Both the position numbers and the translations under genes were made by a program. A stretch of 35,831 nt of DNA from Candidatus Nanoarchaeia archaeon. Lineage in GTDB: Archaea; Nanobdellota; Nanobdellia; SCGC-AAA011-G17; VGLX01. Shown piece by piece: positions 847 to 7,870 of the stretch (within the stretch, counting starts at the first letter, position 1; every line of letters starts with the position of its first letter). Below the pieces are notes generated by a model that did no database searches, had not been told where the DNA came from, and was given only the letters and a program-made list of their open reading frames with translations. Where the stretch lies: the NCBI GenBank assembly GCA_038884815.1, contig JAWABC010000001.1:1-35831 (forward strand), read 5' to 3'.

Positions 847-1192
847 AGTCATAATGATTGTTGATGACGAGCAAGATATTAGGGACTCTATCAAACTTAT
901 TTTAGAAAAAAATGGTTATAGGGTGATTACCGCAATTAACTCTGACGATTGTTTGAATAAACTTAAAGCTGAAAAGCCGGACTTGATTCTTATTGACATA
1001 ATGATGCCAGGCACCCCCGTTAAGGATATAGTACCGAAACTGAAAGATGTTAAGGTTGTTTATTTGAGTGTTGTGCGTGTTTCAGAAGCTGAGAAGGAAG
1101 AGCTTCTTAAATCTCCTAACATAGTTGGTTTTATTCAAAAACCTTTTGACATAAACACTTTGGTCAAGAAGGTTAAAGAATATGTTGGTTAA
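839..1192 (+). CDS. Second stand-alone response-regulator receiver (CheY-like) protein
   Basis: 117 aa with IVDDEQD, LILIDIMMPG and QKPF motifs. The track start is GTG at 839, overlapping the upstream stop. An alternative ATG at 854 lies about 12 nt after an AAGGTGG SD-like sequence. Confidence 0.85.
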   Translation: MAKVIMIVDDEQDIRDSIKLILEKNGYRVITAINSDDCLNKLKAEKPDLILIDIMMPGTPVKDIVPKLKDVKVVYLSVVRVSEAEKEELLKSPNIVGFIQKPFDINTLVKKVKEYVG

Positions 1193-1727
1193 GATGGATA
1201 TCAAGAAGGAGTTGGATGAGTACAAAACCGTCCTCTTGGTAATCCCTGGTCAGGAATACAGTACTGTTGTTCTTGATACAATGAAGAGCTTGTCTGGCAA
1301 CACTGTAGGTTATGTTACGCTTAACAAGACTTTTGGTTCTTTGAAAGACTTATTTGCTAAGAACAATATTAGCTTAGATAACGTGGTTTTTATAGATGGT
1401 ATTTCTAAGATGGTGATGGACGTTCCCAGCCAGACTGATGGCTGTTATTTTGTGAGTTCTCCTAGTTCCTTAACTGAGCTTTCCATCCTCATTGGCAGGC
1501 TTCTCAATCATAACTTTAAGTACATAATTTTTGATTCATTAACAAATCTTTATATCTATAAAGATAAAGATGCTGTTACTAAATTTATTTCTCTCATTAT
1601 TAATAAGATAGAAAGTCATGAAGCGAATTCCATTTTCTTTGCAGTTAAGTATTCTGATCAGGAGAAGGTGATTGAGGAAATTTCTATGTTTTTCAACAAG
1701 GTTATTGATTTAAAGACTGAGCATTAA
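1182..1727 (+). CDS. RecA/KaiC-like fold protein with degenerate P-loop (function unknown)
   Basis: 181 aa. The pattern VLLVIPGQEYSTVV...VGYVTLNK...FIDGISK...SPSSLTELS...YIIFDSLTNLY...IFFAVKY...VIDL mirrors the strand/helix order of COG0467-type KaiC/RadA-like ATPases. The Walker A position reads PGQEYST rather than GxxGxGKT. An alternative ATG at 1194 directly follows the upstream stop. The fold assignment is from memory. Confidence 0.4.
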   Translation: MLVKMDIKKELDEYKTVLLVIPGQEYSTVVLDTMKSLSGNTVGYVTLNKTFGSLKDLFAKNNISLDNVVFIDGISKMVMDVPSQTDGCYFVSSPSSLTELSILIGRLLNHNFKYIIFDSLTNLYIYKDKDAVTKFISLIINKIESHEANSIFFAVKYSDQEKVIEEISMFFNKVIDLKTEH

Positions 1728-1787
1728 GTTTTATTCTAGTTTGAAGTTTAGGAAACATTTATATATTTTTCAGCATATATTTTATTT

Positions 1788-2396
1788 ATGAAAAAAATAA
1801 TCATTCTATCGGTTTTGTTTGCTGTGTCTTTTGTCAGCTTTGTTTGTGCTGACGTCATAATGCCTGGTGAGCGCACCATAACAGTTAAGAACGTTATTTC
1901 CAACATGGCAGATTATCCTGACTATGTTTTTTTTCAGGTTGGTTATTTAGGTCCTTCTATGTGCCCTGCCCAAGTCATTCAAGATGATGGTATTATTCCA
2001 GGTGGTTACAAGTTCTGTGACTTTTCTGTTTTTGCCATTGAAAAATCGAAGTTTGACAGTAACTTTTTGTCTAATGTGAACTCCGCTTTTGTTGACATCC
2101 AGGAAAGGGCTCGTAACTCCAAAGTTCAGATTGATGTTAAAGAAGAGTTGAAATCTTACCTCGCTTCCAAGGGCGCTAAGGAAGTTATTAGCGACATAGT
2201 AACGATGAAGACAGTTCCAGAGTCAAGTACCGAGCAGTCTTACACAGAGTACTACACGGTCGATTTGGAATCTGTTCAGAAAAAGGCTGCATCCACAGAT
2301 GTTGAGCGAAACAGCCTTGTTTACCTCTACATAATAATTCCAGTGGTTGCTCTTTTCATAATACTATTCTTGGTTATTAAGAAAAGGCAGAAATGA
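1788..2396 (+). CDS. Secreted, C-terminally membrane-anchored protein of unknown function
   Basis: 202 aa. N-terminal signal-like MKKIIILSVLFAVSFVSFVCA, and a C-terminal TM helix followed by KKRQK. Its stop overlaps the next start (ATGA at 2393-2396). Confidence 0.6.
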   Translation: MKKIIILSVLFAVSFVSFVCADVIMPGERTITVKNVISNMADYPDYVFFQVGYLGPSMCPAQVIQDDGIIPGGYKFCDFSVFAIEKSKFDSNFLSNVNSAFVDIQERARNSKVQIDVKEELKSYLASKGAKEVISDIVTMKTVPESSTEQSYTEYYTVDLESVQKKAASTDVERNSLVYLYIIIPVVALFIILFLVIKKRQK

Positions 2397-2719
2397 TTTT
2401 CTCTCTTTTTTATTTCCTGATTACCTTCTTACTTGAGTTTTTGATTGTTTTGTTGTTCTTGAGAAAGAATTTCTTTGAGATTTCATCGCGTGTTTTTCTC
2501 ATAAACCTTTTTACATGGCCTCTTGCTAACCTTGCCTATGGCTCTGGCTTTAATTTTTATGTGGTAGAATTTTGTGTTTTCGTTGTTGAAGCTATCCTCT
2601 TGATGTCGTTGTTGGAAGTTAAGTTTGTCAGGGCATTGTTAATCTCTTTGGTTGCTAACTTGTTAACTGCTTTGGTGAATTTGGCTTTCTCTTTGTCATT
2701 TTACGGACTCTTAATATGA
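2393..2719 (+). CDS. Small polytopic membrane protein, unknown function
   Basis: 108 aa and almost entirely hydrophobic (3-4 predicted helices). It is translationally coupled to the upstream gene by an ATGA overlap. Confidence 0.5.
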   Translation: MIFSLFYFLITFLLEFLIVLLFLRKNFFEISSRVFLINLFTWPLANLAYGSGFNFYVVEFCVFVVEAILLMSLLEVKFVRALLISLVANLLTALVNLAFSLSFYGLLI

Positions 2720-3338
2720 ACACAATCAGTGCTATTATGCCCAGAAGTACTATCAGCATTGAAATTCCTACTGTGTTTGTGAATGCCTTGTACCATGGCT
2801 TTCCAAAGAACTGCATCTTTATTTTTGGCACGCTAATGAATGTTTTTAGTATCTCTCCAGGAGGGAATGATTCTATTTCTCCCACAGCTAATGTATACTT
2901 GCCTGTGTTGTCGTTGCTTGAAACATTCATGTAGTATATTCCCTCTTCCAATTCCCTTCTTAGTTCAGGTCCCATCATGTAATAATCCCTGCCAAACTTC
3001 TCATAGTAAAGCTTCCACTCGCCCTGTGTCCCGTCTAAGAAAGTCACCCTGTCATTTTCAAAATCCCTTACCTCTACAAAGAAGTCTTTCCTGTTCTCCA
3101 TCAGGTTGTAAGGAGTTAGTATGTTGAGGTAAAGTTTGGATGGTTTCTCTGATATGATCATATAATTGTCTTCATTTCCATCCAGTTCTCCGTAAAATGC
3201 CCTCGAGATTTCAGGGTCTTTTATTATGATGGGTCTGTCTGGTGTTGCATCCTTGTTGTATACTATTCTTGGCTGGTGTGCGCTCGCTATTAAGGATAGA
3301 ATCAGAATTATTGGTAGGATTATTTTGAAAATTTTCAT
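2655..3338 (-). CDS. Secreted, C-terminally anchored protein of unknown function (predicted mature N-terminus begins with His)
   Basis: 227 aa. Signal peptide MKIFKIILPIILILSLIASA followed by HQPRIVY, a soluble beta-rich looking domain, and a C-terminal TM plus RVRKMTKRK. Its 3' end overlaps the convergent gene at 2393-2719 by 65 nt. Confidence 0.65.
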   Translation of the reverse strand: MKIFKIILPIILILSLIASAHQPRIVYNKDATPDRPIIIKDPEISRAFYGELDGNEDNYMIISEKPSKLYLNILTPYNLMENRKDFFVEVRDFENDRVTFLDGTQGEWKLYYEKFGRDYYMMGPELRRELEEGIYYMNVSSNDNTGKYTLAVGEIESFPPGEILKTFISVPKIKMQFFGKPWYKAFTNTVGISMLIVLLGIIALIVFILRVRKMTKRKPNSPKQLTS

Positions 3339-4657: not shown

Positions 4658-5554
4658 TTAGATTCTTTTTGAGAGTCTCCTTTTTCCCAAAAGCTTTCTT
4701 ACCGGTCCTATAACAAGAAGTATCGCTAAGGCTACTGAAACCCAGAACCAGGTGTTTTTCAAAAAGCTTGATGTTGTTCCTGTGCTTGTCCTCCCAGCAA
4801 ATGTTCCTGCGGTTCCTGTCATGGCTGATCCGCTTAGCGTTGCTGGGTTCACTAGAATCTGTTTTATTGCAGTCCTCCTTGCTCCGAAGGGGTCTGTGTA
4901 GTCAACCTGCACAGTTAACTCTTTTTTCTCAGATACTCCTCTTTGTTTTGGTGATATCTTGAAGGACACTATGGTGTAGTCCCCGCTTTCAAGGTTTCCT
5001 ACTATGGATGCTGAAGTTAGTTCTGTCATAAAGTTTTCCTGTTCTGGTATGCTTACTGTAATAGCATTGGCTGGATTCTTTCCTATGTTTGCTATCGCAA
5101 TGAAAACCCCTTCTGTTGTTATCTCCTGTAGCACAACGTCAAAACTAGTTTGTGCTTCCACTACCGTGATGGGCATTGTTTTTTCTTTCCATTGGCATCC
5201 TGCACAGTCTTTGTATTCAAAAACTATTGAGTTGTCTCCTTCTTTGGCTTGTTCATCTACTCTAACTTTGAATCTTTTTGTGACAGCGCTCTTTGCATTA
5301 AGCGTATCTATCACTATCTCTGGTTCTTCAGTCGGGTCTAAAGAGAAAGGGTAAGATTCTTTGAATCTTATTGCTGAGTTTTGTACTGCGTTGTTTTCAT
5401 TGTTGCTGACCCTTATCCATATCGTGAAGTATTCTCCTGCCTGTACCGGCGTTGGGTAGTAGTTGTCCACATTTATGTCAAGGGCATTAACCAATCCTAT
5501 GCTGAGCAGCATAGCAGTTAAAACAAGAAATGTTGATGTAATTTTTTTCTTCAT
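4658..5554 (-). CDS. Secreted Ig/CARDB-like (COG1361-type) protein, accessory component of the ABC operon
   Basis: 298 aa. It has a signal peptide, two beta-sandwich-like modules (YFTIWIRVSNNENNAVQNS... and FIAIANIGKNPANAITVSI...), a Thr/Gly-rich linker and a C-terminal TM. It sits between the ATPase and permease with a 4-nt overlap at 5551-5554. Confidence 0.6.
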   Translation of the reverse strand: MKKKITSTFLVLTAMLLSIGLVNALDINVDNYYPTPVQAGEYFTIWIRVSNNENNAVQNSAIRFKESYPFSLDPTEEPEIVIDTLNAKSAVTKRFKVRVDEQAKEGDNSIVFEYKDCAGCQWKEKTMPITVVEAQTSFDVVLQEITTEGVFIAIANIGKNPANAITVSIPEQENFMTELTSASIVGNLESGDYTIVSFKISPKQRGVSEKKELTVQVDYTDPFGARRTAIKQILVNPATLSGSAMTGTAGTFAGRTSTGTTSSFLKNTWFWVSVALAILLVIGPVRKLLGKRRLSKRI

Positions 5555-6580: not shown

Positions 6581-6641
6581 TTTTTTGGTATTATGTTTGG
6601 AAAGCCTTTTATCTCGTCATCCGACAAGTGTACACATAAGG

Positions 6642-6650
6642 TTTTTATAA
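6642..6650 (+). promoter_or_regulatory. TATA-like box upstream of the LAGLIDADG ORF
   Basis: TTTTTATAA is centred about 28 nt upstream of ATG 6674 (MFISSEVAEICG...). Confidence 0.4.
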
Positions 6651-6673
6651 TCACCAACATTAGATATGAATTA

Positions 6674-7456
6674 ATGTTTATAAGTTCAGAAGTAGCTGAA
6701 ATATGCGGAATTCATGCAGGGGATGGTCACCTCAGGAAAAATGGTAAAGAATTTGAAGTTAGTGGGGGTATTGAAGAAAAGGATTATTATGTAGGACATG
6801 TTATCCCTTTATTTAATAGAGCATTTAATTTGTCTATAAAAGGTAAATATTTTAAATCAAAAGGTACTTATGGTTTTAGAACATCTAATTCTCATATTAT
6901 TAACACTTTAAAAGGAGCAGGATTTAAATTAGGTAATAAAACTTTAACTGCAAGTGTACCTAAACAGATATTGTATTCAAAAGATCTTGATTTAATTACT
7001 GCATTTCTAAGAGGTTATTTTGATACAGATGGCTGTTTCACATTTGATAAGAAAATTGGTAACCCTTTATCATTCCATAAAACAAGGAATTACTACCCTA
7101 GGATATTATTTACCACATGTTCAAAAAACCTAGCAAAAAACCTTAAATACCTAGTTCAACTATTGGGATTTAAAGCGCATACTTATGTATACATTCCAAA
7201 AGTGCCTACAGAAAACAAGAAGTATAAAATGCAAATAGTTGGAGTCAAAGCTTTAAACTTATGGATGCAATTGATAGGAACAGAGAACCCATCTAAACTT
7301 TCAAGATATTTAGTGTGGGATAAATTTGGTTTTTGCCCACCATACACCACATATGAACAAAGACTAAAGATGTTAAGTGGTAGGTTAAAGCCAGATTTAC
7401 TTTATATAAAGGGCCTATGGTGTAACCTGGAAAGCACGTACCGCTTCGGACGGTGA
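6674..7456 (+). CDS. Double-motif LAGLIDADG homing-endonuclease-like protein (3' end reads into tRNA-Arg)
   Basis: Two LAGLIDADG-type motifs are present: EICGIHAGDGHL and FLRGYFDTDGCF. The track ORF opens at 6593, but ATG 6674 fits the TATA-like box. There is no stop before the tRNA gene. The final 15 codons and the TGA stop (7454-7456) lie inside the tRNA. Confidence 0.75.
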   Translation: MFISSEVAEICGIHAGDGHLRKNGKEFEVSGGIEEKDYYVGHVIPLFNRAFNLSIKGKYFKSKGTYGFRTSNSHIINTLKGAGFKLGNKTLTASVPKQILYSKDLDLITAFLRGYFDTDGCFTFDKKIGNPLSFHKTRNYYPRILFTTCSKNLAKNLKYLVQLLGFKAHTYVYIPKVPTENKKYKMQIVGVKALNLWMQLIGTENPSKLSRYLVWDKFGFCPPYTTYEQRLKMLSGRLKPDLLYIKGLWCNLESTYRFGR

Positions 7457-7484
7457 GATGGGGGTTCAAATCCCTCTAGGCCCA
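7411..7484 (+). tRNA. tRNA-Arg (anticodon TCG)
   Basis: Manual cloverleaf: acceptor GGGCCTA/TAGGCCC; D-arm GTGT-AACCTGGAAA-GCAC; anticodon arm TACCG-CTTCGGA-CGGTG with TCG at 7446-7448; 4-nt variable loop AGAT; T-arm GGGGG-TTCAAAT-CCCTC; discriminator A. No encoded CCA and no intron. Confidence 0.9.
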
Positions 7485-7507
7485 TGTTATATAAGTTTAG
7501 AAAACGG

Positions 7508-7870
7508 TCAAAATGGTGGGTAATCTTTTCTGTATCTCCATTTTGGGAACTCTTTACCTCTGCTCCATTTTTCAACAAGGTCGTAAAGCCTGCTCGTCTT
7601 TTGTTTTTTTCCCTCGTTTATGTTTTTTATCACTTCTATTAGTTTATAATTTGTGTCTTTGTAATCTGCTATTACATGAATCAGATACTCTATTACACCT
7701 TCGTCACCCCATTTGCTTTTGACCTCTTGAAGGTATTCTATACAATGTCTCATCTCTCTGTGGTTCCTTCCCATCTCCTTGTGGTATTCATCCATCCAGA
7801 TATGTAGGTCTTTGTATGTTTTCCCTGTTCTCATTTTACTCATTTTGCAGTGTTCTTCTAAGTTGGGCAT
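7508..7870 (-). CDS. Hypothetical protein (His-rich N-terminal motif; possibly a DUF6915-like family)
   Basis: 120 aa. The N-terminus EEHCKMSKMRTGKTYKDLHIWMDEYHKEMGRNHREMRH resembles a small conserved family often seen in phage or mobile contexts (recalled from memory, low certainty). Confidence 0.55.
   Translation of the reverse strand: MPNLEEHCKMSKMRTGKTYKDLHIWMDEYHKEMGRNHREMRHCIEYLQEVKSKWGDEGVIEYLIHVIADYKDTNYKLIEVIKNINEGKKQKTSRLYDLVEKWSRGKEFPKWRYRKDYPPF

Follow-up and report, generated by a model that had tools for sequence, protein, structure and literature searches.

A free-standing LAGLIDADG gene overlapping tRNA-Arg(TCG) as part of a probable homing-type cassette in DPANN archaea

Free-standing homing endonucleases come mainly from phages and organelles, and archaeal LAGLIDADG genes from rRNA introns and inteins, a residence that is usual for them without defining them. 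Elements of the integrase type that target tRNA genes rely on att sites and a tyrosine or serine recombinase. As a rule they exchange just the 3' part of the tRNA; they restore its function with a partial tRNA copy and leave displaced tRNA fragments at their borders. In ClvR, an engineered Cas9 system in animals, the nuclease is linked to a cleavage-resistant copy of an essential gene and spreads by killing non-carriers. In phage T4, the cluster of tRNA genes also encodes SegB, a free-standing GIY-YIG homing endonuclease that recognizes a site containing a conserved tRNA-gene motif; its gene is missing from related genomes, and homing transfers the tRNA genes around it along with the endonuclease gene, at the expense of recipient markers (PMC2330249). 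Our literature search found no earlier description of a tRNA-linked LAGLIDADG gene in DPANN or other archaea. Here we describe such a gene, which probably forms one compact, selfish cassette of the homing type with the tRNA-Arg(TCG) that it overlaps, and which is widespread in DPANN archaea.

The endonuclease ORF and tRNA-Arg(TCG) in the window

ARAGORN found a single tRNA in the window (the whole 35,831-nt stretch of DNA analysed), a tRNA-Arg with anticodon TCG on the + strand, and the Rfam tRNA covariance model was covered in full by positions 7411-7484 with 59.8 bits (Table 1). This agrees with the tRNA called in an earlier sequence-only reading. The same reading had stated that the upstream ORF has no stop before the tRNA, continues 46 nt into it and ends there in a TGA, with GLWCNLESTYRFGR as its C-terminal tail; the ORF list and ARAGORN together bear this out in full, and the TGA corresponds to tRNA nucleotides 44-46, at the junction of the anticodon stem and the variable loop. 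The 5' extension of the mechanical ORF is probably not translated, since homologues begin at ATG 6674, which is the likely start given these homologue starts and the TATA-like TTTTTATAA upstream. From its spacing, TTTTTATAA is a putative promoter of a nearly leaderless endonuclease mRNA. A bacterial-type (sigma-70) promoter and terminator scan of the window gave 7 sites against 6.9 expected and no terminator, sigma-70 not being relevant to archaea.

Table 1 Features of the endonuclease and tRNA-Arg(TCG) locus.
Feature	Position	Strand	Description
Mechanical ORF	6593..7456	+	287 aa; TGA at 7454-7456
In-frame 5' extension of the mechanical ORF	6593..6673	+	27 codons; homologues begin at ATG 6674
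TATA-like box TTTTTATAA	6643..6651	+	Direct reading; ~23-31 nt 5' of ATG 6674
LAGLIDADG homing endonuclease ORF	6674..7456	+	260 aa plus TGA; double-motif monomer
Region matching the ORF-embedded tRNA promoter of relatives	7370..7390	+	Comparison of 77 loci
TTATATAA	7402..7409	+	Ends 1 nt 5' of the tRNA; encodes the conserved ..LY.. C-terminus
ORF/tRNA overlap	7411..7456	+	46 nt; encodes the tail GLWCNLESTYRFGR, predicted unstructured; TGA 7454-7456
tRNA-Arg(TCG), cassette-linked	7411..7484	+	74 nt, no intron; ARAGORN, Rfam tRNA
Second TTATATAA	7487..7494	+	3 nt 3' of the tRNA, within a T-rich stretch

The ORF had been read as a double-motif LAGLIDADG gene, for which an HMM match was the obvious check. 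It matches Pfam LAGLIDADG_3 (E=3.3e-9, 37.3 bits against a cutoff of 22.5) and carries two motifs (EICGIHAGDGHL and FLRGYFDTDGCF), with catalytic Asp17 in GIHAGDG and Asp119 in FDTDG, both invariant in an alignment of 25 relatives. The Pfam search of the ORF returned no intein domains and the tRNA is uninterrupted by both ARAGORN and Rfam, so that the endonuclease is indeed free-standing, outside any intron or intein. AlphaFold2 modelled the protein with a mean pLDDT of 92.3, which falls below 50 for residues 249-260, within the tRNA-encoded tail, and this tail is predicted to be disordered. The best structural match of the model is the archaeal intron endonuclease I-Tsp061I (2dch; TM 0.80, rmsd 2.6), and the Foldseek matches (E 1e-10 to 1e-6) include I-Tsp061I, I-DmoI, PI-SceI and the TliVMA intein endonuclease domain. 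Model and matches alike have the LAGLIDADG fold, a pseudo-symmetric alpha-beta-beta-alpha-beta-beta-alpha unit present twice with a DNA-binding saddle. A sequence search of the PDB returned only intein endonuclease domains (E about 1e-6).

The ORF has the lowest GC (0.305) and GC3 (0.204) among the 30 window ORFs of at least 150 aa (mean GC 0.393, sd 0.031; mean GC3 0.389, sd 0.061), which confirms the by-eye impression that it is more AT-rich than the flanking genes. The dN/dS of the endonuclease family is 0.06-0.18, and the alignments show a gene under purifying selection with its catalytic residues kept.

Linkage across DPANN and the tRNA promoter at the end of the ORF

A homology search returned 215 homologues of about 250 aa (42-66% identity), all from DPANN, and at least 325 DPANN species encode relatives (GTDB species representatives). 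Of 81 loci, 77 have a tRNA-Arg(TCG) whose 5' end coincides with the conserved C-terminus or follows it closely, the other 4 contigs ending first. Every linked tRNA examined is complete and its acceptor stem pairs, and introns occur in 39 of 69 linked tRNAs, some of them in the D-loop. Comparison of these loci shows endonuclease and tRNA-Arg(TCG) to be conserved as a unit across DPANN phyla. Cassettes of the Pacearchaeota type also carry a small conserved upstream ORF, for which no Pfam match was found and which, as a candidate regulator, is absent from the window.

Stop positions, computed from the ORF start (the query's own tail being translated tRNA), range from 1 to 49 nt across loci. Among 75 intact loci, the stop falls within the tRNA in 47, with overlap modes of 10 and 15 nt that reflect the usual stops of the family, a TAG at tRNA U8-A9-G10 or a D-loop TAA. 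It precedes the tRNA in the other 28, of which 17 have a canonical promoter in a 23-36-nt spacer. As the overlap recurs throughout the protein family, it is not due to chance. Its 46-nt length in the window, however, reads as a lineage accident, because the window tRNA has G9 where the family TAG uses A9; this turns the usual TAG into TGG, and translation continues.

A position-specific comparison of 77 loci located a TATA-like box at about -34..-22 in most relatives, some 26-34 nt ahead of tRNA +1. It sits in the last codons of the ORF or in the short spacer and is present in both architectural classes. The I-L-N/K-G codons at this site read ATTTTAAATGG in relatives, and the Leu codon at the box site is TTA in 68% of loci versus 41% overall. 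We infer that this box in the 3' end of the ORF is the tRNA promoter, and its position in the last codons would explain why ORF and tRNA abut so tightly. The equivalent in the window is ATGTTAAGTGG (7370-7380) followed by GGTTAAAG (7383-7390, -28..-21 from the tRNA), both weak TATA candidates; the upstream TTATATAA is the only strong TATA, yet lies too near the tRNA to initiate at +1. TTATATAA is found just 4 times in the 35.8 kb, once on either side of the tRNA among them; the downstream copy could be either a terminator or a neighboring TATA box.

These data bear on the proposal, made in the sequence-only reading, that one transcript is both mRNA and pre-tRNA and that 5' maturation by RNase P removes the stop codon, coupling or limiting endonuclease expression. 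Where the stop lies inside the tRNA gene, the mRNA must extend into the tRNA; the ORF has a promoter-like box of its own, and in the window the internal box is weak and the strong TATA badly placed, so that ORF and tRNA may still be co-transcribed there. Against this, the well-placed box before tRNA +1 in most relatives means that the tRNA can be transcribed independently, the ORF ends before the tRNA in more than a third of intact loci, often with a promoter in the spacer, and one tRNA (L130, below) is preceded by just ~50 nt of ORF. With a stop position so variable and a disordered tail, the overlap looks incidental rather than regulatory. RNase P coupling is not required to explain the arrangement, and we consider it unlikely. 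None of the RNA runs searched for the window sequence matches it, only one hot-spring DNA metagenome containing the window, and none of those searched for the sequence of L111 (one of the filled loci below) matches either.

Filled and empty sites in relatives

Related genomes have tRNA-Arg(TCG) both with and without the ORF, the polymorphism that the sequence-only reading had put forward as a check. Metagenomic tRNA-Arg(TCG) loci that fit one Pacearchaeota-type sequence pattern and have at least 800 nt of upstream sequence number 88; the gene is present at 3 of them, so that about 95% lack it, and most of the remaining loci carry low-GC DPANN-type tRNAs. There are four syntenic filled/empty pairs (L071/L173, L054/L199, L180/L200 and L111/L190), and in the first three the flanks are 76-88% identical. 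As for T4 seg/mob-type genes, the gene thus lies between host genes in relatives, and the same locus occurs without it in related genomes. These sites stem from Pacearchaeota-type relatives; their proteins share about 44-51% identity with that of the window. For the window's own lineage no empty site was found, since the contigs of the closest homologues (L201-L203) do not share its flanks; a homologue search with the 120-aa ORF downstream, meant to locate such sites, matched only the ORF itself.

L071 (filled) and L173 (empty) share flanks with 87.6% identity across 2075 nt. In L071 an additional 1775 nt take the place of the promoter and tRNA positions 1-52, its new tRNA is only 74% identical to the native tRNA of L173, and the native T-arm/acceptor fragment persists directly after it. 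Native 3' fragments lie downstream in L061 as well as L071, and native 5' fragments, each with its own TATA box, lie upstream of the cassette in about 10 loci; in L065 the ATG of the ORF falls within the D-loop of such a piece. In the window, native tRNA fragments were found neither by local alignment against shuffles nor by Infernal at E<=10. When flank identity is equal, tRNAs are less alike between a filled and an empty locus than between two empty ones, a pattern consistent with co-conversion of the target gene to the donor allele, and cassette-linked and HEG-less tRNAs differ systematically in the D-stem, anticodon stem and variable region, by statistics that ignore shared ancestry. The locus comparisons show that the cassette has replaced the native promoter at filled sites along with the native tRNA-Arg, in whole or in part, that orphan 5' and 3' fragments persist around it, and that the cassette tRNA is much more diverged than the flanks.

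L130 and the decayed copies may represent other stages of a homing cycle. L130 retains only the last ~50 nt of the ORF (including the TATA box), a cassette-type tRNA, presumably functional, and a native 5' half. Decayed copies have a premature stop (L038), a frameshift (L078) or a C-terminal deletion (L075). L143, by contrast, has a cassette-type tRNA allele with the native promoter and no endonuclease, which speaks against co-conversion; either transfer does not always involve both tRNA and ORF, or clean loss of the ORF can occur.

From patchy presence and broken native tRNAs, the gene looks like an accessory, selfish element, and both support the suggestion of the sequence-only reading that this is an undescribed persistence or hitch-hiking arrangement of a selfish endonuclease. 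Its picture of the locus stands in part: the ORF does adjoin the 5' end of the tRNA, but instead of being a passenger in the leader of a host tRNA, it would have arrived with the tRNA as part of the incoming cassette. We favor, with fair but not high confidence, a free-standing homing endonuclease, of putative cleavage specificity, that travels with a replacement tRNA. A LAGLIDADG gene fused back-to-front with its own tRNA-Arg(TCG) would produce an enzyme that cuts HEG-less tRNA-Arg(TCG) genes, probably between the D-arm and the T-arm, a part that native copies have lost. Were the break then repaired from a donor that bears the cassette, the endonuclease gene would be copied in along with the diverged tRNA allele, which presumably resists cutting and preserves the essential function. 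With the tRNA promoter within the last ORF codons, the genes would have to abut and the ORF to continue until the tRNA supplies a stop, and this sharing would prevent the endonuclease from being separated from the tRNA or losing its 3' end by deletion.

More tentatively, the cassette might be a natural cleave-and-rescue element, in which the essential single-copy tRNA-Arg(TCG) is destroyed and the cassette supplies the only surviving, cleavage-resistant copy; we regard this as possible but doubtful. If it were true, a recipient cell could not revert or shed the 3' end of the endonuclease gene, the introns of linked tRNAs, unusually common and variable in position, would protect at the DNA level against the endonuclease family, and intron proliferation in archaeal tRNA genes would have a concrete selective reason.

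A LAGLIDADG protein that was domesticated and has been passed on vertically since early DPANN, with a host role (e.g., as a DNA-binding regulator or in the biogenesis of tRNA-Arg) and regulatory signals shared with the tRNA, would fit the spread over several phyla, the clade-specific architectures and conserved neighbors, the strong purifying selection and the scarcity of pseudogenes: decay is visible in only 4 of about 85 endonuclease-bearing loci, which is few for a purely selfish element. In an Iainarchaeota-like clade the gene keeps a conserved neighborhood in about 15 loci, which fits long vertical residence; this does not exclude homing, because the element always targets the same tRNA locus. 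HEG identity correlated with the identity of a neighboring aaRS at r=0.75 in one subset, as domestication would predict, but at r=0.11 in the other (computed after splitting the neighbor cluster into two paralogous groups), which is not decisive. However, the gene is missing from most sampled Pacearchaeota-type loci and differs in presence between relatives with closely similar flanks, native tRNAs around it are disrupted, its composition in the window is atypical, and the invariant Asp residues and gene-free loci set it apart from the WhiA/maturase type, in which catalysis is lost and the gene fixed. We therefore judge domestication to be improbable.

That the ORF resides in a bulge-helix-bulge intron or between split tRNA halves, the upstream 5' fragments being real exons, is very improbable: the 5' pieces with promoters, the L065 start codon and the introns of linked tRNAs (also in the D-loop) suggest it, but every locus has a complete downstream tRNA with a pairing acceptor stem, no free 3' half matches the fragments, whose sequence is not that of the complete tRNA, and the window, with its intact 74-nt tRNA, has no upstream exon. 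An assembly or sequencing artefact that deleted a stop codon is scarcely credible, even for a window from a single hot-spring metagenome assembly, as the same abutment and in-tRNA stop recur in dozens of independent assemblies and an identical protein fragment is present in an NCBI MAG (P0001).

Significance and comparison with known systems

A homing cassette with a replacement tRNA would be a third way for a LAGLIDADG gene to occupy an essential gene while sparing the host, with the target replaced by a linked copy at the DNA level and with the target's promoter and the endonuclease's stop codon shared through tight gene overlap. It would account for the orphan tRNA fragments around these loci. 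As the family occurs in so many DPANN species, annotation of tRNA-Arg genes and their neighborhoods is affected; the C-terminal tails GPVV, GPVM and GLW..., for instance, are translated tRNA. Through the cassette, the puzzling abundance of disrupted, intron-rich archaeal tRNA genes could be tied to selfish nucleases in a way that can be tested, and the enzymes would be new compact meganucleases with tRNA-gene targets.

Among proteins sharing the fold, WhiA and the bI3 maturase (weaker Foldseek hits) have lost the catalytic residues and are fixed in their lineages, whereas the DPANN family keeps both Asp residues and is patchy. I-Tsp061I and I-DmoI are, like the DPANN family, archaeal, monomeric double-motif enzymes with a conserved stable-RNA gene as target. 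They lie inside spliced rRNA introns, however, and the host gene is restored at the RNA level; the DPANN family has no intron, and a second, whole tRNA gene would restore host function in the DNA itself. In sequence, the family is only 13-21% identical to these enzymes, which lack its C-terminal helical region of about 50 aa. With integrase-type elements the DPANN cassette shares insertion at a tRNA gene without loss of function, a supplied replacement and border fragments, but it has no integrase, spans 1-1.8 kb, and carries an endonuclease and a whole tRNA with its promoter inside the ORF. With ClvR it would share a nuclease aimed at an essential gene and a tightly linked, putatively resistant copy of that gene.

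The closest known analogue is T4 SegB, likewise free-standing, among tRNA genes and absent from related genomes. The DPANN family is LAGLIDADG rather than GIY-YIG and resides on a cellular chromosome rather than in a phage. SegB is not tied to one tRNA identity, whereas the DPANN cassette is tied to tRNA-Arg(TCG), and only the latter has an ORF/tRNA overlap and a putative tRNA promoter inside the ORF. Cleavage has been demonstrated for SegB; for the DPANN endonuclease, we infer it from the replaced and broken native tRNA genes.

An endonuclease gene joined to tRNA-Arg(TCG)

The sequence-only reading had described an AT-rich LAGLIDADG ORF that runs without a stop codon into tRNA-Arg(TCG) and terminates at a TGA inside it, and every element of this description was borne out. 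ARAGORN found this tRNA as the sole tRNA of the window, and it covers the full Rfam tRNA model (59.8 bits). The mechanically called ORF is stop-free up to the tRNA and ends 46 nt into it, its product matches Pfam LAGLIDADG_3 (E=3.3e-9) with both motifs there, and among the 30 window ORFs of at least 150 aa it has the highest AT content (GC 0.305, mean 0.393; GC3 0.204, mean 0.389). Alignment to relatives places the probable start at an internal ATG, giving a protein of 260 aa. The 46-nt overlap is the second-longest among the loci compared: in the same reading frame, relatives stop at a TAG formed by tRNA positions 8–10, where the window tRNA has TGG, so the long overlap is a local accident of a general design. 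In the AlphaFold2 model (pLDDT 92.3, confident to about residue 245, below 50 for residues 249–260), the tRNA-encoded tail is predicted to lie outside the protein fold.

Two further observations concern the immediate surroundings. The 35.8-kb window has four copies of the motif TTATATAA, against 1.3 expected, and two of them flank the tRNA at 1 and 3 nt; the upstream copy supplies codons for the conserved ..LY.. tail and the downstream copy sits in T-rich sequence of the kind usual at archaeal terminators, and their flanking position could be chance. The 120-aa ORF right after the tRNA found no homologue but itself among 5.8 billion proteins and matched only DUF6915, below threshold; it could be cassette cargo, or no gene at all.

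Positions of features in the window and in compared loci
Feature	Locus	Position (strand)	Remark
ORF, mechanical call	window	6593..7456
TATA-like TTTTTATAA	window	6643–6651	spacing fits a nearly leaderless mRNA
Probable start ATG	window	6674
ATGTTAAGTGG	window	7370–7380	weak box
GGTTAAAG	window	7383–7390	weak box
TTATATAA, upstream copy	window	7402–7409
tRNA-Arg(TCG)	window	7411–7484 (+)
TGA stop	window	7454–7456
TTATATAA, downstream copy	window	7487–7494
120-aa ORF	window	7508–7870 (−)
ProRS-like gene	window	~13.7–14.7 kb	BLAST; ~6 kb from the pair
Second complete tRNA upstream of ORF; further copy of its 3' end near	L034	3723–3850 and 3919–3940
Linked tRNA, called Arg(ACG)	L032	4726–4813
Left homologous block	L173 / L071	1–2072 / 982–3055	87.6% identity
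Right homologous block	L173 / L071	2170–2397 / 4831–5053	78% identity
Additional ORF	L071	3056–3750 (−)	not in L173

A protein search returned 215 homologues, nearly all of ~250 aa and 42–66% identical, which come from Woesearchaeota, Nanoarchaeota or Diapherotrites where a source is named. Many aligned homologues end in GPVV, GPVM, GPMV, GPVAQ or GL..., tails that read as the translated 5' end of the tRNA (GGGCCCGT...). Scanning one genome per species, we found a relative encoded in at least 325 species, and the best 80 of these species' loci (Woese-, Pace-, Nano-, Iain-, Micr- and Aenigmat-archaeota) were compared, with linked tRNAs called by ARAGORN, introns permitted, and the tRNA 5' end also anchored by pattern. 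With the window included, the tRNA starts at or just past the conserved C-terminal ..LDPxxxY in 77/81 loci; in the remaining four the contig ends before the tRNA position. Where readable, the anticodon is Arg(TCG). Stop positions, computed from the ORF start for the 75 intact loci, fall within the tRNA gene in 47 and before it in 28, with overlap modes of 10 nt (tRNA U8-A9-G10 as TAG) and 15 nt (a D-loop TAA).

Introns are present in 39 of 69 linked tRNA genes (those longer than 78 nt), in the anticodon loop, with the D-loop frequently interrupted as well. The linked genes of L001, L003, L005, L010, L016, L017, L020, L027, L040, L055 and others often carry 1–3 introns, whose sites vary (D-loop near position 20–23; in or beside the anticodon; T-arm in L017 and L020), and many of these genes are misassigned by ARAGORN to SeC, Pro, Leu, Val or Ser. 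An ACG anticodon, which is unusual in archaea, was called for the linked tRNA of L032 and likewise for the second tRNA of L034, which has an intron inside and whose first 26 nt are almost the same as in the linked tRNA-Arg(TCG) (23/24). Some contigs with the DPANN-type cassette (L003, L004, L007, L015, L028, L029, L055, L078, L079) sit in public MAGs labelled Methanosarcinales, Aminicenantes or Falkowbacteria, probably through binning or labelling errors.

A candidate tRNA promoter at the end of the ORF

We aligned the 45 nt before tRNA +1 across all loci, which yielded two classes. In class 1 (60 loci), the ORF abuts the tRNA and its I-L-N/K-G codons read AT(A/T)TTAAA(A/T)GG at about −36 to −22, a TATA-like box at archaeal distance. 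In class 2 (17 Iainarchaeota-like loci), the ORF has a ~30-aa extension, the tRNA lies 23–36 nt past the stop, and a conserved AAAGATTAAAAAC at about −33 to −21 contains the ORF's TAA. At the Leu position of the box 68% of loci use TTA, compared with 41% of all Leu codons. Because of these boxes and the TTA preference, the tRNA promoter appears, judged by its position, to lie within the ORF end or to overlap with it, which would account for the fixed ORF–tRNA spacing.

The window's counterparts of the box are weak, and the lone strong TATA of the region, at 7402–7409, is too near the tRNA; the window tRNA is therefore possibly co-transcribed from the ORF's promoter. To this extent the window could accommodate the earlier proposal that endonuclease expression is coupled to tRNA maturation through RNase P. 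However, given the TATA-like boxes before the tRNA and the stop positions across the family, such coupling is unnecessary for most of the family.

Filled and empty sites

The simplest reading is a homing-type selfish cassette, in which the endonuclease gene is combined with a tRNA-Arg(TCG) of its own. We call loci with the endonuclease gene filled and those without it empty, and the resident tRNA-Arg of a target locus native. Metagenome contigs were scanned with an ORF-independent, Pacearchaeota-type tRNA-Arg(TCG) pattern (GGTTTCGGCCCN{9,12}GGTTCRAWTCC), giving 120 loci, of which ~15–20 are bacterial and the others low-GC DPANN-type tRNAs. Only 3 of the 88 loci having at least 800 nt upstream contain the endonuclease gene, and in one more locus the gene runs off the contig. 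Synteny with filled loci was seen at several empty ones. Coordinates are tRNA-forward (L111, L143, L190 and L199 are reverse complements of the stored locus), and the case for insertion is drawn from relatives with ~44–51% protein identity to the window's endonuclease, rather than from the window's own lineage, for which no empty site was found via homologues of the 120-aa ORF or the contigs of the closest homologues (L201–L203).

Filled L071 matches empty L173 on both sides (see table) and has 1775 extra nt in place of the L173 promoter and tRNA positions 1–52. Besides an additional ORF and a small conserved one on the minus strand, the extra sequence contains the endonuclease gene, a complete tRNA-Arg(TCG) and 16 nt of spacer, and the native T-arm/acceptor remnant ATTCGATTCCTCCCAAGTTCA is kept directly after the new tRNA. 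The new tRNA is 74% identical to the native one, against 96–100% for tRNAs of empty/empty pairs with 82–83% flank identity. Empty L199 and filled L054 have flanks 76–80% identical and tRNAs 68% identical, with homology stopping after TTATTCAATT and restarting directly past the tRNA, and relative to empty L200 the cassette of L180 starts within the native TATA box. In about 10 filled genome loci the ORF is preceded by an orphan 5' piece of a tRNA (positions 1 to ~20–34), each with its own TATA box at about −30 and an acceptor strand that still pairs 6–7/7 with the downstream tRNA's 3' acceptor strand. L061 has two extra 3' fragments past its tRNA, as expected from repeated invasions.

Stages of decay were also seen: a premature stop interrupts the ORF of L038, that of L078 is frameshifted, and that of L075 has a deletion at its C-terminal end. 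In the wreck L130, the 5' half of a native-type tRNA still has its promoter; after it come ~130 nt of unrelated sequence, then the final ~50 nt of the endonuclease ORF (..QRKDILNGKLDIFSV, with a TATA-like box) and a cassette-type tRNA. Linked (13) and unlinked (85) tRNAs from the same search pattern differ in the D-stem, anticodon stem and variable region (Fisher p ~1e-2 to 1e-6, uncorrected for shared ancestry). L143 complicates the picture: it shares its tRNA allele with filled L054, yet its promoter is native and it lacks the endonuclease gene.

Vertical inheritance of a domesticated protein would suit the clade-specific architecture, the few pseudogenes, the synteny of ~15 Iainarchaeota-like loci (Rad50-like and EF-1beta-like genes upstream, CCA-adding enzyme downstream) and the prolyl-tRNA synthetase (ProRS) gene within ~2.6 kb of the pair in 29/80 loci, on the opposite strand where it is upstream and on the same strand where it is downstream (L201 with Pfam ProRS domains). 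It is contradicted by the filled and empty sites, the native tRNA fragments and the accessory distribution in relatives, and by the persistence of the catalytic residues. Since every downstream tRNA is complete, a reading as an intron or split tRNA fails, and an assembly artefact is excluded because the arrangement recurs across independent assemblies.

Cassette orientation relative to ProRS flips among lineages. Pacearchaeota-type cassettes (L021, L036, L038, L043, L051, L054, L057, L060, L063, L071, L111) have a conserved ~43-aa minus-strand ORF, divergent from the endonuclease gene and ~100–250 nt upstream of its ATG (MTGK(D/E)KKMNYPEIYLIR(V/I)(D/N)KKLKxKLKK(I/L)GSKKVRE..), for which a Pfam search gave no match. 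The repeat GTATTAC(A/T)AATA occurs in the shared intergenic region and right before the endonuclease ATG, and the two may act as a small repressor with its operator; the window has neither. The additional L071 ORF, between the left boundary and this regulator-like ORF, is missing from L173, so cassettes can carry extra cargo.

Proposed homing mechanism and known systems

For the homing-type cassette, we propose that the enzyme would cut an endonuclease-free tRNA-Arg(TCG) gene, likely between the D-arm and T-arm, the portion missing from native remnants. With a filled donor as repair template, the ORF and its diverged tRNA allele would be copied in, and this allele would presumably be resistant while retaining function. 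The putative promoter within the final codons of the ORF may bind both genes together and shield the ORF 3' end from deletion, as L130 illustrates.

The best structural match is the archaeal rRNA-intron endonuclease I-Tsp061I (2dch; target-normalised TM 0.80, rmsd 2.6 Å), and I-DmoI and two intein endonuclease domains, TliVMA and PI-SceI, are also among the best matches; WhiA and bI3 maturase match more weakly, and a sequence search of the PDB detects nothing beyond intein endonuclease domains. The window protein thus shares its fold with archaeal intron endonucleases, but its gene is not in an intron. Neither catalytic Asp varies among the aligned relatives, pairwise dN/dS is 0.06–0.18, and the protein is under selection as an enzyme. 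For DPANN or any other archaea, a literature search with subscription journals incompletely covered turned up no account of a tRNA-linked LAGLIDADG gene. The nearest analogue is T4 SegB, a free-standing GIY-YIG endonuclease within a phage tRNA cluster, whose site takes in a conserved tRNA motif and whose homing also transfers the tRNA genes beside it (PMC2330249). The novelty lies in bringing together an archaeal chromosome, a LAGLIDADG-type nuclease and a target restored by a linked whole-gene copy, together with a stop codon and, as its position suggests, a promoter common to both genes.
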